Shown here: in pieces, positions 1 through 18,077 of the stretch
Position numbering within the stretch: the stretch's first letter is position 1
How the letters are laid out: each line of letters begins with the position of its first letter
Origin: a virus
DNA length: 64,000 nt
Direction: 5' to 3' (one strand)
IMG/VR virus record: IMGVR_UViG_3300027811_000039
Location: 21,149-85,148 of that record
The notes under the pieces: model-generated
Database searches by the model: none
What the model was told of the DNA's origin: nothing
What the model saw: the letters and a program-made list of their open reading frames with translations, nothing else
Made by a program: the position numbers and the translations under genes

Positions 1-238
1 CTGATCAAAACCATTTCCTCTGCACTCGCTTTAATAATCATTTTCAATCTCTCCCCTATTCTCCATTTATGAAATCTTCCCAATCCATGATCCATTTACC
101 ATTTACCTTTATGCCCCCGGTTGCCCACGAAAATTCGCACCATCCATGCCCATCTATAAGCACCTCCATAACCGTTTTCCCAAATTCATTTATAAGTCCT
201 TCTCTTCTCCTCCAATCCTGAGCCACATATTTCATAAT

Positions 239-556
239 TTAGGCCATTTCTTTCTGCTTCAATGCTCTTTCACCATCCCAAAAAAATGGTTTATGACACG
301 TTTTACAAAATGCATTATTCTTATGCTTAGGGTTTTTAGATCCCTTCATTTGTAATCCTCTTAGCATTATTAATATTGATGCAGGTACACCAAACAATAA
401 AAAGATAATGCCTAATGGAAAAAATACTAGTAGGAAAAATGCACCAAAGGTTATCATAAACATTAACGCTGCTAATCCAGAAGTGAATGTTGGTGGAATT
501 ACCTTTACATTTTCACTATCACAATGTGGACATTTCATCTTATTTTTCTCCCACAT
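239..556 (-). CDS. Hypothetical membrane protein with Zn-ribbon-like Cys pairs
   Basis: CPHC and CKTC pairs flank two hydrophobic helices. Confidence 0.55.
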   Translation of the reverse strand: MWEKNKMKCPHCDSENVKVIPPTFTSGLAALMFMITFGAFFLLVFFPLGIIFLLFGVPASILIMLRGLQMKGSKNPKHKNNAFCKTCHKPFFWDGERALKQKEMA

Positions 557-773
557 ATAATAAATTTTTTGTGTTCAATATAACATCTGCGATTTCCTTC
601 TGCTTTTCAATATCAAGTGTCAATGTATAATCTCTTAATTCTTCGGACATTGTCTGGATAACTTGTGTTTGATCTAGACTTAGCTTTGGTTTTGAATACT
701 TGAATATGGACATACCTCCTGTGATCCCGATTACTGCAACCATTGTTACGATTAAATATTTGCTTTTATTCAT
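540..773 (-). CDS. Hypothetical protein with N-terminal membrane anchor
   Basis: ORF with hydrophobic N-terminus and an AGGGG-type RBS upstream. Confidence 0.5.
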   Translation of the reverse strand: MNKSKYLIVTMVAVIGITGGMSIFKYSKPKLSLDQTQVIQTMSEELRDYTLTLDIEKQKEIADVILNTKNLLYVGEK

Positions 774-901
774 CCTATTTTTCCCCTCTCATTTCATAAA
801 AATGTAAGTTTCGATACACTCTATACGGCTTCCCTGTTTTACCTCTAAGCAATATCTGGCACGGTATTCTTCTGAATCCATTTTCTGATAATTTTTTCAT
901 C

Positions 902-1303
902 TTATTTTCCCCCTCTAATCACTGTAAACTTCTCGGTAACATTCATCATTATTTCAGACGGATCCACATAACCATTGCCATGCCCTGCCGATCTAGCTTC
1001 CCTGCAATCCTTAACCTTTACTGAATCAAAATACATATCTCTCTCGATTCCAGCAATCCCATGCCATTTTACTGATTCCATTTCTCTTAATGAGAAGTAG
1101 CCCCATTCCTTTTCTAATCCATCTACTAAACCAAAGAACAAGTAGTCACCATTCTCCTGCCGTTCTCCTTCGACTGCAAACCATGTCCAGCTACTACCAA
1201 GGGCATAGAATTTGCAGATAATCTTTTTCTCTTCCAACTCGATTCCCTCTGTGCTATATAATTTAGGCATTTTTTTCTCAATCGCTTTTGTTAATAATTT
1301 CAT
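902..1303 (-). CDS. DUF2958-family protein
   Basis: Motifs K-F...W-T-W-F-A-V-E...FFGLVDGLEKEWGYFSL.E recognised. GAGGT RBS. Confidence 0.75.
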   Translation of the reverse strand: MKLLTKAIEKKMPKLYSTEGIELEEKKIICKFYALGSSWTWFAVEGERQENGDYLFFGLVDGLEKEWGYFSLREMESVKWHGIAGIERDMYFDSVKVKDCREARSAGHGNGYVDPSEIMMNVTEKFTVIRGGK

Positions 1304-1427
1304 TTTGCATTACCTCACCTTTTTTTATTTTCCTCAACCTCATATGCTTATTATACTCGATCTTGTTGACATTGTCCACATATCACCATCATTTTAAGTA
1401 CATCAATTTTTACCATTTTACTTCCTT

Positions 1428-1643
1428 CTAATACACTTTCATGATCCTGTATTTCTTATTGAACTTTGCAAGATTCCAGCCCTCACCCTGTTCATCAATC
1501 TTTAATGTTTGGTTATCCTCATTGAATCCCAATACTTGTTTGAGCCATATCAAATCATGGTGATTATTCTTGGCATCAATTTTAAACTCAATTTTCAACG
1601 TCTTGCGGTTTACTGCTAATTCCATCATTTTATTTTCCTCCAA
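1428..1643 (-). CDS. Hypothetical protein
   Basis: Short ORF co-oriented with the early-region genes. Confidence 0.5.
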   Translation of the reverse strand: MEENKMMELAVNRKTLKIEFKIDAKNNHHDLIWLKQVLGFNEDNQTLKIDEQGEGWNLAKFNKKYRIMKVY

Positions 1644-1774
1644 TTTTTAGCAACTTAGATTATAATTAAACATCCAATATTCAGCCGATCTATATATGGA
1701 TCTATTCCCCTTCACCCTGCTTGGGTGCTTAGTAACCCAAGCAGGGTGTGCAATCCTTTATAATTCATTTTCAT

Positions 1775-1969
1775 TTACATCTCCTCCAATGACCAATTTG
1801 CTTCTAATCCTTCTGGCTCCTTAACCATAACATCGGATCTATTCATTCCATGATATCTAGCAAATCCGAATGATTTTTTCTCAGCATCCTTCAAATCTTT
1901 TGCCTCGAAAGCTAATCTTGGATCATAAACTTCATCAAACATCAGAACGTGTAATATATATTTTTTCAT
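1775..1969 (-). CDS. Hypothetical protein
   Basis: ORF directly downstream of promoter-operator 2022 with a GAAGGGG RBS. Confidence 0.6.
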   Translation of the reverse strand: MKKYILHVLMFDEVYDPRLAFEAKDLKDAEKKSFGFARYHGMNRSDVMVKEPEGLEANWSLEEM

Positions 1970-2036
1970 TTTTAATTTCCCCCTTCAATTCCTGATCTCT
2001 TGCACTATTGTATCATCTAATGTAGACTTTGTCAAC

Positions 2037-2252
2037 TTATGCAGCTTTTTTTATCTTCATTTCCAATTTGATAATCATATCTTTTACATCTTCGTAATCT
2101 CTTTCGCATTGATTCACTCTTTCATCATACAACTCATAATCGTCATTTGCTTCAAGCGATTCCTTATATGCAGCCTTCATCTTACGTTCCAATCTACCAA
2201 GCTCATAATTCAAATCATCCAACCGTACCTTCATTGATTCTATCTTTTTCAT
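2037..2252 (-). CDS. Coiled-coil hypothetical protein
   Basis: Start reassigned to ATG 2252 (GGAGG RBS). The longer ORF-track start runs through the promoter leader. Confidence 0.6.
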   Translation of the reverse strand: MKKIESMKVRLDDLNYELGRLERKMKAAYKESLEANDDYELYDERVNQCERDYEDVKDMIIKLEMKIKKAA

Positions 2253-2286
2253 TTTAATTTCCTCCATTTTGTTTTTATATTTAGTT

Positions 2287-2333
2287 GATAAGCGATCCCA
2301 TGCCCATCGCGTTGTGGAACGTCCATCGCTCTC
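2287..2333 (-). ncRNA. Leader RNA motif, copy 3 (degenerate)
   Basis: GATGGACG-N14-GGGCATGGGATC closed by a GAGCGAT/ATCGCTT stem, just downstream of promoter 2364. Confidence 0.5.
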
Positions 2334-2538
2334 AACTCCATGCACTTATTGTACCATATTTTAGTAGACATTGTCCACACCAATTTATAGAAATTAATCT
2401 TTATCTAAATAATGAATATCTTCCATCAATTCATAGTCATCCTCATAGAATTCCTCAGCCTTGCTATACTCGATGAGGACATATAATTCTTCTATTCCCA
2501 TCTTAATTATTCTCCTTTTATTCTTAATTTATGGATCT

Positions 2539-2585
2539 GGAAGTGATCCCATGCCCCGGCACATTGCGTTGCGTCCATCACTTCC
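2539..2585 (-). ncRNA. Leader RNA motif, copy 1
   Basis: 35-bp core 2545-2579 is identical to 4045-4079 and is closed by a GGAAGTGAT/ATCACTTCC stem. Confidence 0.55.
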
Positions 2586-2658
2586 TCATCTCTATATTGC
2601 ATATAGTATACGTTTTTGTTGACTTTGTCTACAGTAACATATGGTTAATATTCATTAT

Positions 2659-3027
2659 TTAGGACAATGCTCTGAGCCATCTATCTTTCATGTCTTGGGT
2701 ATCTTTACCTATATCAAAAGACATCGTAACTTCAACCATTCCTTGGTTTGTCTCGAAACGCTTAGGTGCAAATGCTAGGCTGCTTCCAGCCTCAATAACT
2801 CCAATTGCTTTCATGGCATCAAGATCCCTCTTGGCCCAATTTCCAGCTTTCATGAATTCATAAACTTTACCATCTTCCGTGCATCCATATATTATTTTAA
2901 ATCCCATACACTTGCCAGTTGCCTTGTTAGCATCCTGCACATTATTTAAAGGCATTTCATAAAACTTATGGGGCATGAATCCCTCTGTCGTTTTAACCAT
3001 CCCAATAAAATTTTCACATTTTTTCAT
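2659..3027 (-). CDS. Hypothetical protein
   Basis: ORF with GGTTGA leader motif upstream. Confidence 0.6.
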   Translation of the reverse strand: MKKCENFIGMVKTTEGFMPHKFYEMPLNNVQDANKATGKCMGFKIIYGCTEDGKVYEFMKAGNWAKRDLDAMKAIGVIEAGSSLAFAPKRFETNQGMVEVTMSFDIGKDTQDMKDRWLRALS

Positions 3028-3112
3028 ATCTCATCAACCTCTTTCATTTTTTATATCCTTCAACCAACCTATGGCTCATTATACCATTTTTTTGTATACT
3101 TTGTCCACATTA

Positions 3113-3391
3113 TCAAACTTCCAATTCTTTCATTTTTTCTTTCAGATTTTCTAACTCCGCTATTTTATTTCTAATTTCCAATTCCATTTTTGATATTTCC
3201 AACGCTCTCGGGTGCATATCTTTTATTAACAACATCCCATGGTTTACATATAAAAGTGCTATATCACGCTTTTCATTGATGCTAGGATAATAATCATATA
3301 CCATTTGGATAATCTCAAATTCCGCATTAGTAAATACCTTATATTCTGGATTCATCTCTGCAACCAAATCTGTAAATTCAATATTAGTCAT
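3113..3391 (-). CDS. Hypothetical protein with C-terminal coiled coil
   Basis: ORF with strong GGAGGAGG RBS. Confidence 0.6.
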   Translation of the reverse strand: MTNIEFTDLVAEMNPEYKVFTNAEFEIIQMVYDYYPSINEKRDIALLYVNHGMLLIKDMHPRALEISKMELEIRNKIAELENLKEKMKELEV

Positions 3392-3406
3392 TTTTATTTC
3401 CTCCTC

Positions 3407-3664
3407 CTATAATCCATTTATAGCTAATATCATACCTTCATAATCCGGGCCATCCTGAGCTGATCCATATGATTTTTTCTGGTAGAAATTATCTTTAAGC
3501 CAACAAACCTTTTTTTGCACATCCCAGCTAATATCTGAATTTTCAACCATGATAGCAAATGCTTTATCAAAAGAATTCTTAGCAGCAACCTTATTCTCAT
3601 TTCTCATATGTCTACCAGAATTATTCAAGGCTCTCATAATTAATATCTCATTTTTATTCATCAT
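3407..3664 (-). CDS. Hypothetical protein
   Basis: ORF downstream of promoter-operator 3716. Confidence 0.6.
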   Translation of the reverse strand: MMNKNEILIMRALNNSGRHMRNENKVAAKNSFDKAFAIMVENSDISWDVQKKVCWLKDNFYQKKSYGSAQDGPDYEGMILAINGL

Positions 3665-3743
3665 CTTTTCCCCCTTATTCTTTTCCTCAACCTGTGCCTA
3701 TTGTACCATCAAACAGTAGACAATGTCTACTGTTTGATATAGA

Positions 3744-4010
3744 CTAAATTATTCCATATATTTTAGATTTGAAAACAAAGTAATCATCTTCAAATTCAAC
3801 CCAATCAAGTTCACCATTAAACTGTAAGCATTGATATCGGAAGAAAGCTATTATTGCACCAAGTGTCCATTCAGTTTCCTTTACCCATTGCATGAATGAC
3901 ATATCATCGGGCCTCATGCAACAAAGAGCTGTCATTTCATTTTCATGTTCCTTATTGTATGGAGTATTTTTCACCAGATCTATAAATTGTTGCTTTTTGC
4001 TTATCTTCAT
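3744..4010 (-). CDS. Hypothetical protein
   Basis: ORF with AAGGAG RBS, downstream of promoter 4115 and a leader RNA motif. Confidence 0.6.
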   Translation of the reverse strand: MKISKKQQFIDLVKNTPYNKEHENEMTALCCMRPDDMSFMQWVKETEWTLGAIIAFFRYQCLQFNGELDWVEFEDDYFVFKSKIYGII

Positions 4011-4039
4011 TTTGTTTTTCCTCCTTATTTATCAGAGAA

Positions 4040-4084
4040 ATCAAGATCCCATGCCCCGGCACATTGCGTTGCGTCCATCTCGAT
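4040..4084 (-). ncRNA. Leader RNA motif, copy 2
   Basis: Same 35-bp core as 2545-2579, closed by a different stem (ATCGAGAT/ATCTTGAT). Confidence 0.55.
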
Positions 4085-4321
4085 CTCCCTTATGGCTTTA
4101 TTATATCGTAACAAGTAGACATTGTCCACTATATATATTTACCAATTATTAGGCTTTTATCAACTCAAATCTTTCAATAGTTTTACAGGTAAGCTGCCGA
4201 ACAGCCCGCTCTTCTTCAGTTTCCAGCTTCCCCTTATATTCCATGCTGCCCTCATATTTATATGTCAAGATAGATCCATTTTTAAAATATGCAATCGCTT
4301 TAATCATCTTCATTTCCTCCT

Positions 4322-4528
4322 TTATTTAGAATTTAGAATTTCCAGATCCATATCCAATAACCATTGGGCCAAGATTTTAACATCATCCAATTCCTCAATT
4401 TTCAGCTTCCTTGTTTGTCCTATTTCAACGATCTGTTTCAGCCTATCGCCAATCTCATTAATCGTTTTCCCCATATTTTCTCTTTCAGTTTTCATCTTGC
4501 ATCTCTCCTTTAATTTTCTCTCGCTCAC
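4322..4528 (-). CDS. Hypothetical protein (true start probably internal)
   Basis: ORF downstream of promoter-operator 4550. Confidence 0.45.
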   Translation of the reverse strand: MSERKLKERCKMKTERENMGKTINEIGDRLKQIVEIGQTRKLKIEELDDVKILAQWLLDMDLEILNSK

Positions 4529-4592
4529 AATTTAATAATACCATATGTAGTGGACAATGTCCACAGTTGGCCAAGGGTAATGGATATTTATT

Positions 4593-4796
4593 TCAAATGT
4601 TTTCACCAAATGGATTATGGATCAACTTATATATATCAATCCAATTCTTGCAAGCAGAAACATCTAACTCAGCAATCTTGAGCACCATCATTTGATAATA
4701 TCCATCTATCTGCTCATAAGTGCTTAAACGTGTCAATGCTGCCCACGTTCCATAGGATACGCATCTTAATTCGTTCTTTGCTTCATCTTTTGTCAT
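4593..4796 (-). CDS. Hypothetical protein
   Basis: ORF in a tight operon with 4803-5607. Confidence 0.55.
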   Translation of the reverse strand: MTKDEAKNELRCVSYGTWAALTRLSTYEQIDGYYQMMVLKIAELDVSACKNWIDIYKLIHNPFGENI

Positions 4797-4802
4797 TTCA
4801 TT

Positions 4803-5201
4803 TCACCATTTCACTTCAATTAATTCAATGAGCATCCCATCATTCTGAGCTTTCTCAATCCATCCATCCGTGCTATCCCATGTATATGAATTCATGAATT
4901 CTTCTAAGGTCTGGTCACAATCGGATATGTTCATTAATTTTATCGCATACTCTTTTGGGATCGTGAATTCCCTACAGTAATACGCATATTCCTCACCATC
5001 ATTCCTGAATGGGTCATGAGCTGGGTATGCTGTGAGTGTTACCTTTTCCCCAACATATGATGGATTGGATGGTATTATCTGTTCCCTCGGAACTGGTTCA
5101 TCATCCATTTTATTTTCCTCTATCTTCAATCCACAGATCCTGCAATAATTCGCATTACTGCTATGTTCTTCGTTTTCACATCTAGGACATAAATAAATCA
5201 A
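4803..5201 (-). CDS. Zn-ribbon hypothetical protein
   Basis: N-terminal CPRC-x10-CRIC. Confidence 0.6.
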   Translation of the reverse strand: MIYLCPRCENEEHSSNANYCRICGLKIEENKMDDEPVPREQIIPSNPSYVGEKVTLTAYPAHDPFRNDGEEYAYYCREFTIPKEYAIKLMNISDCDQTLEEFMNSYTWDSTDGWIEKAQNDGMLIELIEVKW

Positions 5202-5607
5202 AGCAATTTCCCCCTCTTATATTCTCCCAAGGCCCCTTGTGCTTATGCTTCCATGATAGATCCCTGACCTGTTCACTACTATATTCAAAGTGCTTAATCA
5301 ATCCTCTTGCAGCATAGTATTTTTCCTTATCATAAAATCGCTGGTAGACTCCTTCAAATACAATGTTTTCCCCGATCTCAATCCAACCATGATCTATAGG
5401 AATCCCTCCAAGCACCATGCAGGTTCCATGAATAAGTTTGATTTTCGATTGGCTTAATGAATGTATAATATAATCCCAACTTTTATTAAAACACGCTTTA
5501 GGGTAAACTCTATTGGTAACATTGATTTTATATACAGGATCTACGGCTACCTGCAGATCCCTATATTCTTCTCTTGTTCTCTTTACTGCTTGGTACATAG
5601 TAGGCAT
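5182..5607 (-). CDS. Putative papain/transglutaminase-like fold protein
   Basis: ACFNKS...LIHG...DHGWIE gives a possible Cys-His-acid triad. Start reassigned to ATG 5607 after a GGGG RBS. Confidence 0.45.
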   Translation of the reverse strand: MPTMYQAVKRTREEYRDLQVAVDPVYKINVTNRVYPKACFNKSWDYIIHSLSQSKIKLIHGTCMVLGGIPIDHGWIEIGENIVFEGVYQRFYDKEKYYAARGLIKHFEYSSEQVRDLSWKHKHKGPWENIRGGNCFDLFMS

Positions 5608-5620
5608 TCCACTGTTCCCC

Positions 5621-5770
5621 CTATTCGCTGATTGCATCAATTCGGATGAAGTTATCTTTATCTTGAAGCTTAACAATGAATTTGTCCATAGCTAATCTGG
5701 TTTTGAATTCCTTCATTTTTCCAACCATTTGATCTTTTTTATTAACCTCAACCCATTTTACAGCTACCAT
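5621..5770 (-). CDS. 49-aa hypothetical protein (below the ORF-track cutoff)
   Basis: MVAVKWVEVNKKDQ...IDAISE read by hand, downstream of promoter 5833. Confidence 0.45.
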   Translation of the reverse strand: MVAVKWVEVNKKDQMVGKMKEFKTRLAMDKFIVKLQDKDNFIRIDAISE

Positions 5771-5853
5771 TTTATTTTCCTTCTTTCATTTTTTATTTCC
5801 TCAACCTCTTGGCATCATTATACCATTTTCTTGTATACTTTGTCCACACGTTT

Positions 5854-6081
5854 TTAATATCCTTCTGGCACTTCCTTAACATCCCAATCCCACGGAGCCA
5901 TATTGGTATATTTGCATATATAATCAAAAACATTGGATTCTTTAACCTTCGCAGGGTTTACCTTATATCCATTCCCTCTCAAATCTTTTATGAATCTAGC
6001 CTTTGTTTCGTACTCTTTATTCTCAATAAAAGATATCCCATTGCCATAACTCGATTTCACCAAAGCACTATATGTTTTCAT
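5854..6081 (-). CDS. Hypothetical protein
   Basis: ORF downstream of promoter-operator 6144 with an AAGGA RBS. Confidence 0.6.
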   Translation of the reverse strand: MKTYSALVKSSYGNGISFIENKEYETKARFIKDLRGNGYKVNPAKVKESNVFDYICKYTNMAPWDWDVKEVPEGY

Positions 6082-6174
6082 TTTTAGTTCCTTCTTTCTT
6101 TTTTAAAATCTCTCTCAACCGCATCTTCATAGTACCATCACATAGCGACATTGTCCACACCAAATTATAGAAGA

Positions 6175-6195
6175 AGGCCCGATTATCACGGGCCT
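6175..6195 (-). terminator. Hairpin terminator after the DUF932 gene
   Basis: AGGCCCG-N7-CGGGCCT followed by a pyrimidine-rich tract on the minus strand. Confidence 0.6.
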
Positions 6196-6200
6196 ATTTT

Positions 6201-7217
6201 CTATGCTGCAACAAGTTCGGTATAGATGAATGATTCCAACGCTATTCTTGTATCTTCATTCGTTAATACTTGTGCTGCTCTGGTAAAGCTATTAACAAGA
6301 TCATACACTGTAGCTTGCTTAGAATCTATTCTCTCTACTTGGAAGCACTCCTGTACTGTCACATTGAATTCCTTCGGCAGTGTGATCCCTTTTGTTCTTT
6401 TGAGTAGATCATTGATTGCTTTCATCGGATCAGTAATCTTCATATTTTTTGTTTGAGCGAATTGGGCCATCTGTTTTTCTCCTTGGCTTAAAACCTTTTC
6501 AAATGCCTGAGCAACCTTTAGCGGCATATCTTCTTTCTTAACTCCCATGTGTCTCTGCATGAATCTTTCGGTCTTTGCTTCCACGACTTGAAGGCCATTA
6601 GAACAAATCGTCCGGTATATAAATCCCCCAATTGATACGCTTCGTTTTCCAACCTCGCTATTTCTGATCTGCATACCAAACATTAATTCATCCGGTTGTC
6701 CATCCTTTAATGTCCCAGCGTTATAAGATATCTCAGGGAAAGTTATTCTCATATTGAATCCGTCAAATAACTCATCTGTATTGAATCTCTTGATCTCATG
6801 TTTCTGATCTCCCACAACATCGGCTACCATTTTCAAAACATCAGTATTATCAAAGATTGAATATTTATCAGTGAGTACAGATCTAACATATTTTTTACCA
6901 TCTTGCTCAACCGTTCTCAGCATCCAATTTTTTTCTTCATACTTGGCATTATTTATCCAATAATCCACATTCTGTTTCTGTAGATCCAAAGGGCATCTTT
7001 CCATGTAAGTTGTTGGGATAGCCAATTTGTGGAACAATTGATTTTTTCCCCAATCGGTAAAGCCATAAAATTCATTCCCTGTGATAAGTTCCCCATTCAC
7101 GCTATATCCTAACAATTTAGGGCTAACGAATACATCCTCGGTTCTAGTATCCTTCTCCTTGGACATTTCTAATAATTCATTAATTGTTTTAGTTGCCATT
7201 TTCTTTTCCCCCATCAA
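6201..7217 (-). CDS. DUF932-family protein
   Basis: R.VLTDKYSIFDN...FG+QIRNSEVG..SV.IGGFIYRTICSNGL and C-terminal T.YDL.N.FT pattern. Confidence 0.75.
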   Translation of the reverse strand: MMGEKKMATKTINELLEMSKEKDTRTEDVFVSPKLLGYSVNGELITGNEFYGFTDWGKNQLFHKLAIPTTYMERCPLDLQKQNVDYWINNAKYEEKNWMLRTVEQDGKKYVRSVLTDKYSIFDNTDVLKMVADVVGDQKHEIKRFNTDELFDGFNMRITFPEISYNAGTLKDGQPDELMFGMQIRNSEVGKRSVSIGGFIYRTICSNGLQVVEAKTERFMQRHMGVKKEDMPLKVAQAFEKVLSQGEKQMAQFAQTKNMKITDPMKAINDLLKRTKGITLPKEFNVTVQECFQVERIDSKQATVYDLVNSFTRAAQVLTNEDTRIALESFIYTELVAA

Positions 7218-7477
7218 TTTTTATTTTTTTCCTTCAACCTCTTGGCATCATTGTACTATACATCTGTAGACTTTGTCAACAGTAAACGACATTTATATTT
7301 AATATTTTTTCAAAGCGAATTTTTTACCATTCAATCCTGCGAATCTAATATCAATGAATATGATTTCTATAATTTTTCTCTTCTTCATTTTCTTTTCCCC
7401 CCAAATTTTTTATTTCCCTCAACCTCTTGGCTTTATTGTATATGTTTCTGTTTACATTGTCTACATGAAAATATATC

Positions 7478-7720
7478 CTATTCCCCATCTTTGAACTTTG
7501 TCAAAATCAATTCATCATTCCACATCTCATATGTTACTGAGCCGATACCATCTAGCTCTAAATTACCATTCTCATTAACGTATATATTTATCTCTCTCTG
7601 TAATCCTTCACCATTTATTTTGATCTTGGCCTTTCCTACTAATCTTTTCATGTCTTTCTCCTCCAAATTTACTTTTATATTTAAACTAGGAAGGTTGGGG
7701 CTTACCCAACCTTTTTCCAC
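7478..7720 (-). CDS. Hypothetical protein
   Basis: ORF overlapping the end of the preceding gene. Confidence 0.5.
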   Translation of the reverse strand: MEKGWVSPNLPSLNIKVNLEEKDMKRLVGKAKIKINGEGLQREINIYVNENGNLELDGIGSVTYEMWNDELILTKFKDGE

Positions 7721-8163
7721 ATTAGGTATTCAACGATGCAGGTTATGGTTCTGAATGATACGTTATATTCTTTAGCCAAGTGTGATTTACGCATTCCAGC
7801 TTTAAACTTTCCACGGATTTCTATGACTTGCTCTGGGCTTAATTTTGGTTTAAATTTATCGGTTCTCTCAACCTTTTGAACATTTTCAATCTTCTTAGCT
7901 TTCTTCGCCTTTTTTATCTTCTCTGGCATCATGATAAATTCGATCATCTTATTTAGTTCTTCATCTAATATTTTGCTTTCAATTTCAGATTCTTCGGTAA
8001 TCTTTTCACCAAGCTCATACCATCTTTTAATAGTTGATTCTGTGATTTGTTTTTCTTTTCCCGATTCAACCTCAGTAGCAATGATCTCGCCATTCACCTT
8101 ATGTTCTACTATGAATTCTTTACCATTTCTTTTATTAATTGCATTATATTTCATTTTCATCAA
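7702..8163 (-). CDS. Protein with C-terminal helix-turn-helix
   Basis: KLSPEQVIEIR...KSHLAKEYNVSFRTITCI. Confidence 0.6.
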   Translation of the reverse strand: MMKMKYNAINKRNGKEFIVEHKVNGEIIATEVESGKEKQITESTIKRWYELGEKITEESEIESKILDEELNKMIEFIMMPEKIKKAKKAKKIENVQKVERTDKFKPKLSPEQVIEIRGKFKAGMRKSHLAKEYNVSFRTITCIVEYLMWKKVG

Positions 8164-8467
8164 TCTCCTTTTATATTTAATTTGCTCAACCTCTTATTTA
8201 CATAGTACCATTTGCAGACATTGTCTACAACGCCCAATTATTTCCATTTTATTATTCAATAACCTCATAAAATGAAATGAAGGACATTTTGCTAAGCGTC
8301 ATTTTCCTACCAGTTTCCTTATTTATCAAGGTATAGATCCATCCAGTTTCAGGTGTCCAACCTTCACGGTAAAAATATTCAACCATATTAGATTTATCAA
8401 TGCACGATTTTTCCATTTCTATTTCCTCCAATTTTACTTTTATATTCAGAATGGGGAAGGAGATTTT

Positions 8468-8773
8468 TTACATCTCCTGCAACCATCTCGCATTATCAAA
8501 ATCTAGCAGCCCACCAGCATCTAGTATTTCTTGGAGTGCCTTTTTCCCTCCCATTGGGGTATACGGTGCATCAATCATTGGTCTGCCCATTGCTCTTTTT
8601 AGGAAATTGATTGGGGCCAGATCTGCAGCGAAAGCGAAATATCCCAGCCCTTCCACATGGAAAGCATATCCTTTATTCATTTCAATATAACCTCTAGCTG
8701 TTCCGAATTTTTTACCCTCAATCTTTACTATTTTCAACTTGGCGTTAATTTCTAATGTTGTCATTTCAACCAC
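8468..8773 (-). CDS. Hypothetical protein
   Basis: ORF downstream of promoter-operator 8821. Confidence 0.55.
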   Translation of the reverse strand: MVEMTTLEINAKLKIVKIEGKKFGTARGYIEMNKGYAFHVEGLGYFAFAADLAPINFLKRAMGRPMIDAPYTPMGGKKALQEILDAGGLLDFDNARWLQEM

Positions 8774-8877
8774 TCCTTTTTTTATCTCTCAACCTTATGT
8801 GTTTATAGTACCATTTTTATGTAGACTTTGTCAACAATTAATTTATCAGGAAGGGGAGTTTCCTCCCCATGTTTTAT

Positions 8878-9072
8878 CTAATTTGCATACTTGTGAATCA
8901 CACTCAATAACTCACAATATTCCCCGCCATGAAGTTTATATAATCTGCTTTTATATACGGCCTCCCAGTTACCAGTATCCTTAGCATCCTGAATTCTTTT
9001 AACATCTGCTTGTGTCGTATAACTTTTATCATAAGATCTTCTTTTTTTAATCTCATCCAATATTATTTTCAT
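8878..9072 (-). CDS. Hypothetical protein
   Basis: ORF downstream of promoter-operator 9131. Confidence 0.55.
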   Translation of the reverse strand: MKIILDEIKKRRSYDKSYTTQADVKRIQDAKDTGNWEAVYKSRLYKLHGGEYCELLSVIHKYAN

Positions 9073-9284
9073 TTCATTTTCCTCATTTCATTTTTTAAAT
9101 TCTCCCGGCTCATTTATAATACCACACCATGTAGACATTGTCCACATTTTATTCAAACTCAATCCTTAAATTTGTATATCCAAGGTGCATATAAACTGAT
9201 CGCTTATGATTTACCTTGCTCCTAGTACAATACATACATTTTCCATCTTTTCCGTCCAAATCTGTAAAATATAAAATAAACATT

Positions 9285-9512
9285 TCAGTTCCCCTTCGCT
9301 CTTAATATAGGTGCCATAGATCCTTTGCCCATTGGGTAGATGCACTCCATGTTGTCCCAGTTAGTAATCCTACGACTCGATGTAGAATCCTGCCCAATTC
9401 TTTTTATCGTAATGGATTTATCAGTTCTCCTAACAACCTCATAAACCCAAATGCATTCATAATCGCAAACTGATCTGCATGAATATTCTTGCCCAACTTC
9501 AAATCTTTGCAT
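9285..9512 (-). CDS. Hypothetical protein
   Basis: ORF coupled to 9499-9747. Confidence 0.6.
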   Translation of the reverse strand: MQRFEVGQEYSCRSVCDYECIWVYEVVRRTDKSITIKRIGQDSTSSRRITNWDNMECIYPMGKGSMAPILRAKGN

Positions 9513-9747
9513 TTTTCATTACCTCCATATATTCTTGATAATCATTATTTTGTAAATCCTCAATGGTTTGATATTCCTCTTGCCCTTCTTTCAACATAAT
9601 GCTAATGGTATCAATATTATTCATCTTAACTATTCTCTCATACGCTGCCAACCAACTATATTCATTAGCTATCAATGTAAAATTATATCCTCTTTCTTCC
9701 AACCACGCTTTGTATTCTTGTTCTTCTTCATAATTCATCCTCAACAT
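9499..9747 (-). CDS. Hypothetical protein
   Basis: ORF downstream of promoter-operator 9793 with an AAGGAG RBS. Confidence 0.55.
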   Translation of the reverse strand: MLRMNYEEEQEYKAWLEERGYNFTLIANEYSWLAAYERIVKMNNIDTISIMLKEGQEEYQTIEDLQNNDYQEYMEVMKNAKI

Positions 9748-9816
9748 CTCCTTTTATTTTTCTCAACCCCTATGCTCTATTATAACGTATTTGCAGACAT
9801 TGTCCACATAAATATT

Positions 9817-9855
9817 AATAAATGGATCCCAGTTTTGGGCTGGGATCCATTTATT
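9817..9855. terminator. Bidirectional intrinsic terminator
   Basis: Perfect 16-bp inverted repeat AATAAATGGATCCCAG / CTGGGATCCATTTATT with a 7-nt loop. Confidence 0.8.
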
Positions 9856-9857
9856 TA

Positions 9858-10088
9858 TTACGCTTCTGCATTTCGCTTTTCAATCCAAGTATCAACTTGT
9901 TTCTCTGTCCATACTGGTCTATTCCCAATATAGGTCGCAGGGCTAGGGATGATGCCACGTTTCCAATAGGTATGGACTTTACGGCGATCCCATCCACCAA
10001 TTCTTTTCCCGAACTCAGTCACTCCAAGCAATTTCGGGATACCCGCTATTTCCTTTTTCATTATATCTTCAATAGTTAATACCTTCAT
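9858..10088 (-). CDS. Excisionase/AlpA-like winged-HTH DNA-binding protein
   Basis: LLGVTEF..RIG.WDRRKV..YWKRG..P.P...GNRPVW...V..W. Confidence 0.65.
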   Translation of the reverse strand: MKVLTIEDIMKKEIAGIPKLLGVTEFGKRIGGWDRRKVHTYWKRGIIPSPATYIGNRPVWTEKQVDTWIEKRNAEA

Positions 10089-10100
10089 TATTTTTCCCTC

Positions 10101-10406
10101 CTATTCATTAACGGCAATAAATCTAAATGTTTTTTTCTCAAAATAATGGTGTATACATTCATCAACAACCATTTCCACATTCCCTTTTATATCCCTAATG
10201 TCTCCAAATATTCTGTCATGTTCCGACTTATTAACTTCTGCAACATGTTCCAATGCCTTTAATATCTGAGTATTTTCCTTGACTTGGATTTCTAAACTAT
10301 CAAATCTAGATTCTAATCCATCAAACCTAGATTCTAAGCTATCAAAACGAGAATTCAATTTTTCAAATTGTACTAATACTAATTCCTGAAATTTTTCGTT
10401 ATCCAT
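10101..10406 (-). CDS. Coiled-coil protein (heptad RFD/LE repeats), paralog 1
   Basis: MDNEKFQELVL...RFDSLESRFDGLESRFDSLE. Confidence 0.65.
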   Translation of the reverse strand: MDNEKFQELVLVQFEKLNSRFDSLESRFDGLESRFDSLEIQVKENTQILKALEHVAEVNKSEHDRIFGDIRDIKGNVEMVVDECIHHYFEKKTFRFIAVNE

Positions 10407-10632
10407 TTTTTATCCCCCTATACATCTCACATTTTCTTTTTGCATACATTTCAATCAGATCATTATTAAAATCTACCAATTCTTTATTCCATGCTTTTAC
10501 TATAGAAATCTCATTATCAATGCTATCAAATCTTTGATCCATCTGTTCAAATCTTTTATCAATAACCAAAAACCTTTTATTCATCTGTGTTAATAGATTT
10601 AATACTAATTCTTGGAATTCATTATTTTCCAT
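10399..10632 (-). CDS. Coiled-coil protein, paralog 2
   Basis: MENNEFQELVL...KRFEQMDQRFDSID. Confidence 0.65.
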   Translation of the reverse strand: MENNEFQELVLNLLTQMNKRFLVIDKRFEQMDQRFDSIDNEISIVKAWNKELVDFNNDLIEMYAKRKCEMYRGIKNG

Positions 10633-10639
10633 ATATACA

Positions 10640-10933
10640 CTATTCCCCTTTAACTATTTCCGTGAAGTCACTCCAATCCTCTACCTTAAATGCTCTTATA
10701 TCCCTAACTGACTTCTTGAACCAATCTATTTTTTGCAATTTATTTATCGCTTTATATACATTCGTTAAATTATTCTGGTCACTAGAAATATACAGACTCC
10801 CTTGTGTCCATGTAAATCCAATCGCCTCTAATTCTTGTCTCACTTCAAGATAGGCATTGCCATATGATTCACCATAATGTTTTTTTAATTCGTCTGTTTT
10901 CATATCAAATGCTATCGCATACAATAGCCTCAA
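10640..10933 (-). CDS. vapD: VapD-family (Cas2-like fold) ribonuclease
   Basis: YAIAFD...Y..AY.E+R..L...GF...QGSLY...[20 protein letters not shown]. Confidence 0.85.
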
Positions 10934-11011
10934 CCTCCTTGAGCATTATTTTCTTAATTCAAATGTACCATTTATTGTTTACTATGTCAACAGGATATTA
11001 TTGCCACGCAG

Positions 11012-12576: not shown

Positions 12577-12762
12577 TCATGGGACGAGTTGAGTTTTATT
12601 TTTCTCCTTCAACGCTTTCTGGATATAAATCCAATATTCCTTTGATACCACGATAACATTCCCATAATTAGATTCCACTTCAAGTGGCTCATTGGATCTT
12701 ATAACCTCATTTATTTTTCCGAAAAAGTTATCTCTGAACTCAGCTACTGCAATTTTCTCCAT
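12577..12762 (-). CDS. Phd/YefM-family antitoxin-like protein
   Basis: I.VAEFRDNFFG.+NEVI....PL.V....GNV+VVS.EYW. Confidence 0.75.
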   Translation of the reverse strand: MEKIAVAEFRDNFFGKINEVIRSNEPLEVESNYGNVIVVSKEYWIYIQKALKEKNKTQLVP

Positions 12763-12784
12763 CTTCTTTTACTCCTTTACTCTT

Positions 12785-12979
12785 TTACCCCTTTATCTTA
12801 ACTGCTGCAAAAATCATCCTATTAACCCCAATAACCTTTCCTAAAACTTCATGATGTTCATCTTCAAAATGAGTAGGTTCTTTGTATCCCTGTTCCCTAG
12901 CAATTTTTGTATCTTCAAATACATCCTCAATTTTCACTGTCAGAAATCTTGGTGTTTTAATATAATCGCCTTTTTTCAT
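12785..12979 (-). CDS. Hypothetical protein
   Basis: ORF with GAGGGG RBS. Confidence 0.55.
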   Translation of the reverse strand: MKKGDYIKTPRFLTVKIEDVFEDTKIAREQGYKEPTHFEDEHHEVLGKVIGVNRMIFAAVKIKG

Positions 12980-12999
12980 TTCTTTTAAGTTCCCTCCTT

Positions 13000-13269
13000 T
13001 TATGGATTACATAAAATCTCGTCATGGTGCCCACAATTCCTGAAAATAATATTTTCTTTTCCATCTATACTAAATGTAATTCTAATATCCATATTTCCAC
13101 TAATCTCATAAACTCCTCGATACCCTTTGACCTTTTTAAATCTCAAACTATTTGGCAATGGTTCAGAAAACAACTGGACTATCGCCTTATTTATTACCTT
13201 TTGTATTGCTCTATCTAATTTCATATATTGTTTTGTGAAATAATTAGTTCTCTGCAAATCTTTAAACAT
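13000..13269 (-). CDS. RelE/ParE-superfamily toxin
   Basis: RT..F.KQY.KL...SLRFKKVKG..GVYEI...DIRITF...I.FRN.G.HDE. Overlaps the upstream antitoxin gene. Confidence 0.75.
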   Translation of the reverse strand: MFKDLQRTNYFTKQYMKLDRAIQKVINKAIVQLFSEPLPNSLRFKKVKGYRGVYEISGNMDIRITFSIDGKENIIFRNCGHHDEILCNP

Positions 13270-13546
13270 CTGATTTTAACCCATCTAAATGTTTCATTAA
13301 ATTTTCTAGATCCATCGGTTTACTGACTCTTCCCAACCTGATATCTTCATCAGCCTCACGTTCTCCATCTTGCCATTCTTTTGTCCAGAACCATGCTTGG
13401 CTTTTATCAATAACTAGAACTGGTGTAATAATTATCTTTCCATCTTGGACGATAATTTCCAAATTATCCCCTTTCTTTATCTCTAACTCTGCTACAACTT
13501 CTTTTGGTAAAGTTATTTGGGATTTCTCCCTGAGTGTCAGAATCAT
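13262..13546 (-). CDS. AbrB/MazE/SpoVT-family antitoxin
   Basis: LREKSQITLPKEV..EL.IK.GD.LEI...DG.III.P, then QAWFWT.EWQ.GERE. Confidence 0.85.
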   Translation of the reverse strand: MILTLREKSQITLPKEVVAELEIKKGDNLEIIVQDGKIIITPVLVIDKSQAWFWTKEWQDGEREADEDIRLGRVSKPMDLENLMKHLDGLKSDV

Positions 13547-13630
13547 TTCCTTCCCCACTTTCCTACATTCCAACTTTCCTACATTTGCATTGTACTATGA
13601 TTATGATTACTTTGTCAACATGTAAGCAAA

Positions 13631-17243: not shown

Positions 17244-18077
17244 TCAGAATTGATTAGGCCATTTGTGACCGTAGTCGGCGATTAGTTCCGGTGGGCATGG
17301 GCCGACTAAGGATATAAATTTATCTACATCATCTTTAGTTATGGTAATACGCATTCCTTGACCAGAAATTTTATTACTTTTGGTTATCGTGGAATGAATT
17401 CCCAAATTACTAAGACCTTTAACAAGTATTTCCTGATCTTTCAAAGGGAAATAATTGGTGTACAAAGTTAGTCTAGTTCGGTATTTTTCTTCAGTTCTAC
17501 TACCATCGCCAAGATACCAATGCAATAACATCCTCGGAGTTAAAACTAAATCTGCTGGCACACGCTTTTTTGGCTTGTACCAGCGTTTTTTCATCTCTCC
17601 TAAGATTGGAATATGGACGCTCCTGAATTGATATAATTCCGAAGCATTCATTTTTGAACCTTTATTTATTCCACCTGACATAATTTTTTCCTCCGCAGGA
17701 CGAATACCCATGGGACTTGTTGGTAATCCATTTAATTTAAATTCTTCCTTCAACCATTCCATATGATTTAAAGAAATAGAACCATGACCATAACCAGCAG
17801 AAAGCTTACTCGGAGTAAATATTAAACTACCATCTCCCAATAAATTACCTTCAAGTATCTCTCTTAATGGTTCCGTAATTTCAATAAATTGATTTTCACC
17901 AAGACAAGCACGTTGTCGTCCAAGACTGTGGGAAATTTCAAAACCATTTTGTTTAAGATACTTACTAATAACTTCCCGATCTGTTCCAACTTCTTTTGAT
18001 ATTGCCCTGAGTGATAAACCTTTGTTATGGTATTCAATTATTTCCTGAATTTTTTCTGGTGACAGAACTTTTGCCAT
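17244..18077 (-). CDS. Free-standing LAGLIDADG homing endonuclease with N-terminal HTH
   Basis: ILEGNLLGDGSL and LLHWYLGDGS motifs. Start at ATG 18077 (AGGGGGAG RBS). Confidence 0.85.
   Translation of the reverse strand: MAKVLSPEKIQEIIEYHNKGLSLRAISKEVGTDREVISKYLKQNGFEISHSLGRQRACLGENQFIEITEPLREILEGNLLGDGSLIFTPSKLSAGYGHGSISLNHMEWLKEEFKLNGLPTSPMGIRPAEEKIMSGGINKGSKMNASELYQFRSVHIPILGEMKKRWYKPKKRVPADLVLTPRMLLHWYLGDGSRTEEKYRTRLTLYTNYFPLKDQEILVKGLSNLGIHSTITKSNKISGQGMRITITKDDVDKFISLVGPCPPELIADYGHKWPNQF

Follow-up and report, generated by a model that had tools for sequence, protein, structure and literature searches.

The window analyzed in this work is the whole 64-kb stretch of DNA taken out of the 86.7-kb IMG/VR virus record IMGVR_UViG_3300027811_000039 (completeness rating 99%). 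It encodes siphovirus-type proteins, including a tape measure, a Sipho_tail protein, a Mu-type portal, and a T4-type terminase. Its GC content is 34-40%, nearly every gene lies on the minus strand, and small genes fill an early/accessory region at positions 1-11,000. In this region, three 5′ leaders carry a short GC-rich hairpin, the subject of this work, built on the motif GATGGACG-N14/15-GGGCATGGGATC (2294-2327, 2545-2579, and 4045-4079, all on the minus, coding strand). As the genes here are all on the minus strand, the motif is in mRNA sense. An earlier note, made from the sequence, had reported these three copies, and a search with the exact pattern GATGGACG-N{10,20}-GGGCATGGGATC found all of them, against no match in 100 dinucleotide shuffles used as background; the last two copies were indeed identical across 35 nt. 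The hairpins and the operator-promoters in front of them are listed below, with bit scores from a covariance model of the motif (R1).

Hairpin copy A: 2283..2337, minus strand; exact motif at 2294-2327; closing stem AGUUGAgAGCGAU / AUCGCUuaUCAACU; type-A core of 28 nt, GGACGUUCCACAACGCGAUGGGCAUGGG; 66.6 bits with R1.
Hairpin copy B: 2534..2590, minus strand; closing stem GGAAGUGAU / AUCACUUCC at 2577-2585 and 2539-2547, with 3 further outer pairs possible; type-B core of 29 nt; 70.3 bits with R1.
Hairpin copy C: 4034..4090, minus strand; closing stem GGGAGAUCGAGAU / AUCUUGAUUUCUCU, 14 bp including 3 G-U pairs; type-B core identical to that of copy B; 65.6 bits with R1.
Operator-promoter unit A: 2348..2378, minus strand; operator at 2364-2378; extended -10 TGgTACAAT ending at 2348.
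Operator-promoter unit B: 2603..2632, minus strand; operator at 2618-2632; -10 TACTAT at 2603-2608.
Operator-promoter unit C: 4100..4129, minus strand; operator at 4115-4129; -10 TATAAT at 4100-4105.

About 17 early units sit behind a 15-bp palindromic operator, GTNGACAWWGTCNAC, which overlaps the -35 element of a sigma-70-type promoter and is followed by TAnAAT. In the standard early cassette, operator and promoter are followed by a Shine-Dalgarno (SD)-like purine run and an ATG. The earlier note had placed the motif just after an operator-promoter and before a ribosome-binding site (RBS), and this holds for all three copies, but it needs correction in one respect, as the region has around 17 such promoters and just three carry the hairpin. 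The motif copies start 14-25 nt past the -10 hexamer and ~4-12 nt past the inferred transcript start (in unit A, the spacing from the -10 predicts a start near 2341, 4 nt ahead of the stem), and an RBS and ATG follow 45-55 nt downstream of the motif in all three units. The 50-nt element has a GC content of 54-59% versus 34-36% in the surrounding region, in line with the earlier description of a GC-rich element in AT-rich DNA. One further operator, at 3716-3730, is embedded in a 31-bp perfect palindrome, ATCAAACAGTAGACAtTGTCTACTGTTTGAT (window 3700-3745, minus strand), which comes directly after the stop codon of an 88-aa gene and could double as a transcript-end hairpin and an operator. A scan of viral contigs for the operator-promoter pattern gave essentially chance matches.

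The flanks of the motif differ in sequence from copy to copy and still pair, as had been claimed, with stems longer than first stated (7, 9, and 14 contiguous bp in copies A, B, and C). Shuffling the 3′ flank gave pairing that long with P = 0.01, 0.005, and 0.0007, respectively (range over copies, 0.0007-0.02), and the z-scores of the minimum free energy (MFE) were about -2.3 to -2.4 for the three window copies. The sense MFE was -20.2 (A), -21.1 (B), and -22.9 (C) kcal/mol, and -20.6 kcal/mol for a fourth distinct copy found in sister phages, versus antisense values of -15.8 (A), -21.2 (B), -11.5 (C), and -15.2 (fourth distinct copy) kcal/mol. The fold is thus stronger in the mRNA sense for three of the four distinct copies, owing to G-U pairs. 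As the sense fold mostly beats the antisense one and several of its pairs are G-U, the structure belongs to the mRNA-sense strand.

Covariation was analyzed on five copies with four distinct stems, from three related phages. Pairing is intact in 98% of the cells of the closing stem (P1), and double-sided changes occur at four of its nine pairs, supporting the compensatory changes proposed before. The covariation score of P1 was 0.49 compared with 0.26 +/- 0.06 in shuffled sets, none of which reached it (0/500), and slid registers scored at most 0.14. The cleanest compensatory event separates copy B from the copies in the sister phages G001 and G002, where the arms are 93% identical and one U-A pair is swapped for C-G. 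The flanks of chance core matches in other genomes almost never pair past the fixed GAT/ATC. As the family is tiny (five copies, three related phages), the covariation evidence rests on the four distinct stems.

Conservation of the core acts at the nucleotide level. With a type-A core of 28 nt and a type-B core of 29 nt, GGGCAUGGGAUC is read in two frames, giving GHGI in type A and (A)GAWD in type B, and it is this two-frame reading that leads us to place the conservation in the nucleotides. Whatever the reading frame, the apical domain keeps GGACG...CAAUG.G...GGGCAUGGG, and the type-A core is 93% identical between phages, compared with 70-78% for the early DNA around it. In type-A copies, P1 can be joined by a 7-bp upper helix, giving ~20 bp with an internal loop, whereas this upper helix is not available to the type-B copies.

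The earlier note recognized no known motif here, and a check against Rfam 15 agrees, as no family reaches its gathering threshold anywhere in the window. Relaxing the limit to E <= 10 for 2200-4200 added nothing above noise, and the best match on the motif was caiA with 20 bits against a 55.5-bit threshold, in an alignment that covered only the stem and the A-rich RBS region. K-turns, G-quadruplexes, and the cores of known small ribozymes and riboswitches were considered by eye, and none fit, in agreement with Rfam. As for pairing in trans, complements of the core elsewhere in the genome were short matches in coding DNA, consistent with chance, and an idea involving Dam/GATC was dropped, as GATC is not avoided in these genomes. 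The 3′ flanks (AUCGCUUAUCAACUAAAU, AUCACUUCCAGAUCC, and AUCUUGAUUUCUCUGAU) have no U-run and a terminator scan was empty there, so the element does not look like an intrinsic terminator or attenuator. The motif is a genuine, strand-specific, co-varying RNA hairpin without an Rfam match. The part of the earlier proposal that made it a structured element of the transcribed strand is supported by the sense fold and the co-varying stem, and the functions proposed there are candidates.

The family is real yet tiny, with a very narrow distribution. Exact-pattern scans covered IMG/VR, JGI metagenomes, and GTDB genomes, and the strict pattern gave 9 matches in viral contigs, 11 in metagenome contigs, and 13 in genome contigs, among which only two true extra copies were found (viral contigs L125 and L127), one each in the sister phages G001 (81.9 kb) and G002 (83.5 kb). 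The remaining strict matches were judged to be chance, as they lie in DNA of 52-76% GC with flanks lacking comparable pairing; one contig of 60% GC had flanks pairing over 9 bp, but its homologue lacked this pairing. The looser pattern GGACG-N10-20-GGGCATGGG gave only chance matches in viral contigs, in high-GC DNA with unpaired flanks. Covariance model R1, of the kind the earlier note proposed to build, was made from the five copies and recovered nothing beyond them in the present phage (G000), G001, and G002, nor in four more distant relatives; weak matches at 17271 and 1052 fall within coding DNA. No motif copy exists elsewhere across the 250 kb of the three genomes.

At terminase (TerL) identities of at least 75%, only G001, G002, and two short fragments were found, all others being at most 53% identical; the sister TerL proteins are 77-79% identical to that of this phage, and a search with a 92-aa early protein returned G002 as its sole match. 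There is no close cultured relative in INPHARED, which had no DNA match to 8 kb of the early region and no TerL relative above ~48% identity. The GC content, the extended -10 promoters, and strong GGAGG RBSs suggest a Firmicute-like host. In Logan DNA contigs, the sequence recurs unchanged in two soil samples, the contigs breaking at the 35-nt repeat. These identical direct repeats (2545-2579 and 4045-4079) are the exact points at which de Bruijn contigs from public runs are interrupted, and the 1.5-kb segment between them stands as a unitig of its own; if the two repeats recombined, three genes would be deleted or circularized, but no junction contig was seen in these runs.

The early DNA of the three phages is collinear at 70-78% nucleotide identity and differs by insertions and deletions of whole cassettes. 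G002 has the two genes that flank the unit-C promoter-plus-hairpin module but not the module between them, and a leader like that of copy B fronts different genes in G000 and in G001/G002, so promoter-plus-hairpin modules are gained and lost whole between phages. Copy B has arms like those of G001/G002 (93%) and a core like that of copy C (100%), and copy A shares its core with G001/G002.

A comparison of the motif leaders with ordinary ones points to what the stem encloses. Ordinary leaders read ...GGTTGAGGaaataaaaaATG / ...GCCAWRAGGTTGAGGaaataaaaaATG, where the purine run is the SD of the gene. In the motif leaders, the same purine run (GGAGTTGAGAG, GATGAGGAAG, and GGGAGATCGAG) forms the 5′ arm of the stem, 4-9 nt ahead of the motif AUG (GAUGGAC), which occupies the place of the gene ATG in the ordinary cassette. 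The motif leader AATGCTATAGAGATGAGGAAGCGATGGA parallels a G002 leader, AGTATTATAGGGATGAGGGAACAATGGA, and is nearly identical to it up to ATGGA; the ATG of this paralogous leader opens a frame that we take to be a real gene. The 3′ arm is pyrimidine-rich and complementary to the SD-like run of its own cassette plus the AU of the AUG. Because the 5′ arm is the cassette's own SD and AUG and the 3′ arm complements them, the stem is a predicted SD/anti-SD clamp over a decoy (default) start codon. The earlier note missed that the motif starts with an AUG behind an SD-like stretch, both in the stem, and that the family is tiny; the arm made of SD and AUG with its decoy clamp, the two-frame GGGCAUGGGAUC, and the discordant histories of arms and core are new here.

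In all five copies, the frame from the motif AUG is open for 17-25 codons, and in four of them it ends 0-5 nt before the main ATG, the fifth ending at the main SD. The main genes each have their own SD outside the stem. In the window, these features are:

Possible leader ORF A: 2249..2326, minus strand; 25 codons, with a TGA stop overlapping the main ATG (ATGA).
Possible leader ORF B: 2507..2578, minus strand; 23 codons, with its stop 5 nt ahead of the main ATG.
Possible leader ORF C: 4025..4078, minus strand; 17 codons, with a TAA stop overlapping the main SD (UAAGGAGG).
Gene after copy A: 2037..2252, minus strand; 71-aa coiled-coil-like ORFan with a weak phrog_5553 match.
Gene after copy B: 2394..2501, minus strand; 35-aa ORFan, very acidic.
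Gene after copy C: 3744..4010, minus strand; 88-aa ORFan, with a 76% identical ortholog in G002 that has neither its own promoter nor the hairpin.

Ordinary leaders also contain mini-ORFs of 2-7 codons (window 3030-3060, minus strand, and several other leaders, for example at G000:30293, G001:29551, and G002:73824), such as ATGAAAGAGGTTGATGAGATATGA, which overlaps the start of a 122-aa gene, and ATGAGGAAATAA. These arise where the SD-like GGTTGAGG run reads GGATGAGG.

The reading that we favor, with a probability of roughly 0.42, is that of a cis-acting leader RNA whose conserved apical domain may be recognized by a putative factor controlling translation or stability. Three monocistronic early transcripts would begin with the hairpin, and, as no intrinsic terminators were found near the one-gene units, transcripts reading through from upstream promoters would contain it as well. 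The clamp would shut the default start of the cassette, with the real gene following behind its own unpaired SD, and the apical domain would serve as the recognition surface for a trans-acting factor, presumably a protein of the phage or its host, or a nuclease, that either sets message stability or controls the opening of the clamp. Once open, the clamp would let ribosomes translate the leader frame of 17-25 codons up to the main start. Transcription from the predicted promoters, the binding factor, and the regulatory outcome are all steps that we infer. A more specific version, which we consider doubtful, is that of a phage-specific riboregulator in which a dedicated factor opens or cuts the SD/anti-SD clamp and so times a few early ORFan genes. 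Candidates for such a factor would be an unrecognized phage RNA-binding protein, a Cas2/VapD-like nuclease, or a nuclease-free Nop-domain TasA.

Several observations weigh against the favored reading. With the main SDs left unpaired, the main gene may escape control by the clamp altogether, and about 4 in 10 other frames are open over the same stretch as the leader frame, which makes an open frame weak evidence of translation. In the core, two small helices, CGY/RYG and AUGY/GCAU, are mutually exclusive alternatives; the changes that support them are all wobble changes, and neither has a compensatory pair. All five copies and four stems come from one small phage lineage, and this kinship inflates the shuffle statistics. 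Arms and core differ in history, which fits a spread driven by recombination as well as selection. Among the public runs, no RNA run was listed with the sequence. When 20 early proteins were scanned against Pfam, none was recognized as a classic RNA-binding regulator, with the possible exception of a Cas2/VapD-like protein. This 97-aa early protein (10640-10933, minus strand) matches Pfam CRISPR_Cas2 (PF09827) at E = 2.3e-5, with 24.9 bits against a cut-off of 23.8, and by eye is VapD-like, i.e., an endoribonuclease of the Cas2 fold; the phage has TIGR arrays and no CRISPR. Two toxin-antitoxin-like pairs, potential phage-encoded mRNA interferases, were also observed. The first (window 12577-13573, minus strand) combines a ParE-like gene, weak and under the Pfam cut-off, with a gene that is Phd/YefM-like by eye, and the second (G000:12352-12932, outside the window) a MazE/AbrB-like gene with one that is PemK/MazF-like by eye.

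If functional, the hairpin would be a compact (~50 nt) modular leader element, a start-site clamp with a recognition domain, that travels with a promoter cassette. It would offer a small model for how phages time ORFan early genes and a possible handle on a new RNA-binding regulator, and if the factor were TasA, it would link TIGR-Tas proteins to post-transcriptional control. Its reach is limited to five copies in three uncultured phages.

The main rival, which we regard as unlikely, is an RNase III-type processing or stabilizer hairpin, where the irregular helix of ~20 bp (P1, internal loop, and upper helix) would be cut by the host RNase III or another double-strand nuclease, separating nested read-through early transcripts and leaving protective hairpin ends as in T7 and SP82. 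The copies are repeated, conserved, and located in leader or intercistronic positions of the early region, with an internal loop, and the scarcity of terminators in this region makes read-through transcripts likely. P1 and the 7-bp upper helix of type A can together give ~20 bp, but the type-B core lacks the same upper helix, and a P1 of 9-14 bp by itself makes a short substrate for RNase III. In Bacillus mRNA decay, a stem near the 5′ end would shield a message against 5′ exonuclease, and in two copies the stem begins 4 nt from the predicted 5′ end. With the hairpin in only 3 of ~17 cassettes, it is not a general processing signal.

Still less probable is that the conserved blocks serve as recombination points of a mobile regulatory cassette or small selfish palindromic element that shuffles ORFans, the hairpin being a by-product or of minor importance. 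The pattern of whole-cassette insertions and deletions in collinear early regions, the absence of the unit-C module at the G002 junction, and the B-like leader joined to different genes all agree with it, as does the discordant similarity of core and arms, which is what exchange at the invariant GATGGACG and GGGCATGGGATC would be expected to leave. Such shuffling is known in T4-type phages, where it is mediated by PeSLs, repeats made of a promoter and a stem-loop (PMC2839356, PMC4122927). Recombination in the core would, however, break the pairing of P1, yet all copies pair, including through G-U pairs that make sense only in RNA. The hairpin is also fixed in position relative to promoter and RBS and found nowhere else in the 250 kb, the promoter-operators alone would suffice as recombination repeats, and there is no evident target-site duplication or transposase. 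A PeSL-like role fits the mosaic pattern but leaves the maintained RNA-specific pairing unexplained.

It is improbable that the hairpin region chiefly encodes a leader peptide, an upstream ORF translated from the motif AUG and coupled to the downstream gene through ribosomes that terminate and then reinitiate. The spacing of the SD-like run, the open frame, its ending at or near the main start, and the position of the AUG at the true start of paralogous cassettes are all as such an ORF would have them. Against it, the two frames over the conserved bases mean that no peptide is conserved past ~6 residues, the SD and AUG are paired in the predicted stem, and the openness is shared by ~40% of other frames. 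It is very improbable that the element acts at the DNA level, as an auxiliary operator or as a single-stranded DNA hairpin for replication or recombination. Core pieces resemble the operator (TGGAC...AATGTGCC in type B and TGGACGTTCCAC in type A versus GTGGACAATGTCCAC) and a rep-O-like gene lies nearby, but the spacing of the half-sites is unlike that of the operator, the variable co-varying flanks with their G-U pairs point to a single-stranded fold in the mRNA sense, and the fixed place between -10 and RBS has no obvious reason at the DNA level.

A link to the TIGR-TasA system, in which the motif would be a DNA target of a tigRNA or a stem-loop RNA bound by the Nop-domain protein TasA, is not supported, and we give it very little weight. 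All three motif-bearing phages carry large dual-repeat TIGR arrays (here with units GAGUGAACCA-N8-GAUWGUAYCA-N8 and a 36-nt period), but because these phages are close kin, the co-occurrence is uninformative. In published stem-loop TIGR units, conserved boxes are enclosed by palindromic stems of variable sequence (PMC12045711; bioRxiv 10.64898/2026.09.09.750476), a likeness that the hairpin shares, and single-spacer matches with at most 1 mismatch were slightly enriched in motif regions (83 vs 62.5 +/- 7.9). No unit had both spacers matching adjacent motif sites: with the two spacers A and B of one unit on opposite strands, adjacent sites, and a gap of 0-2, no dual match with at most 2 mismatches fell on any motif copy. 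A tigRNA unit has box C (CCA) and box D (UG) flanking two variable spacers of 8-12 nt, in tandem arrays; the motif copies are solitary, have GGA and GGG by the stem instead of CCA/UG (here GA...CA), and enclose a conserved interior of 28-29 nt, below what a dual-spacer unit should have, rather than two variable spacers. Separately, the first tigRNA unit of the array (window ~55176-55212, minus strand; spacers CATGATGT and GGGAACAA) matches G001:50996-51011 in 16/16 positions, in the rc(A)+B dual-strand target geometry published for tigRNAs and with no gap, where ~0.14 such matches would be expected by chance. The target lies inside a repeat-rich, tape-measure-like ORF, with no counterpart site in G000 by blastn, and the match may reflect inter-phage targeting.

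Finally, the antitermination signal suggested in the earlier note, taken here as a processive antitermination or RNA polymerase-modifying leader RNA of the put/nut kind, can be largely set aside: a structured RNA with a conserved loop directly downstream of early promoters recalls HK022 put and lambda nut in position and structure, but these are single small-gene units with the next promoter immediately after each, the variable 3′ flank leaves no boxA-like conserved element, Rfam gives no match, and the lack of intrinsic terminators in or after the units makes attenuation or local antitermination unlikely.

Returning to the cis-acting leader RNA, one of its closest likenesses is to the SD/anti-SD clamps of RNA thermometers, translational riboswitch platforms, and the lambda N-leader, where a pyrimidine-rich strand likewise pairs with the SD and start codon and the pairing is kept through compensatory change. 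The hairpin differs from these in that the clamped start belongs to a short leader frame instead of the main gene, no Rfam riboswitch or thermometer model matches, and no ligand, temperature dependence, or protein is known for it. Stem-loop TIGR units also enclose a conserved-boxed interior in a variable palindromic stem, and this phage encodes TIGR arrays (PMC12045711), but the hairpin lies outside any array and lacks both the box C/D sequences by the stem and the pair of variable spacers.

At the T7 early R-sites, cleavage and hairpin ends have a role in mRNA stability comparable to that in SP82. For SP82, cleavage and the hairpin ends were reported to set mRNA stability (PMC1935012; PMC4838370, references 19-20), and the Bs-RNase III targets there are stems with internal loops that receive a single cut on the downstream side (PMC1935012; primary references in PMC4838370). 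The SP82 and T7 sites resemble the present hairpins in being repeated and mutually similar in an early region, with internal loops and in leader or intercistronic positions. They differ in that only 3 of ~17 cassettes carry the hairpin here, that the stem pairs an SD-like run and AUG, and that the upper helix is not common to both core types; no sequence relation is known.

With PeSLs, the hairpin shares an organization of small repeated cassettes, each with a sigma-70-type promoter and a stem-loop, that flank ORFans in plastic regions (PMC2839356, PMC4122927), and in both cases close relatives differ by the gain and loss of genes bounded by cassettes. In PeSLs, the stem-loop sits beside the promoter and acts as a terminator, whereas here the stem-loop is downstream of the promoter, inside the transcript, and without a U-tract, and it carries a large, conserved, GC-rich apical domain with the SD and AUG clamped. 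Promoter-plus-hairpin cassettes have been gained, lost, and recombined among related soil phages, in a parallel to the PeSL shuffling of T4-type phages that comes from an unrelated siphophage lineage.

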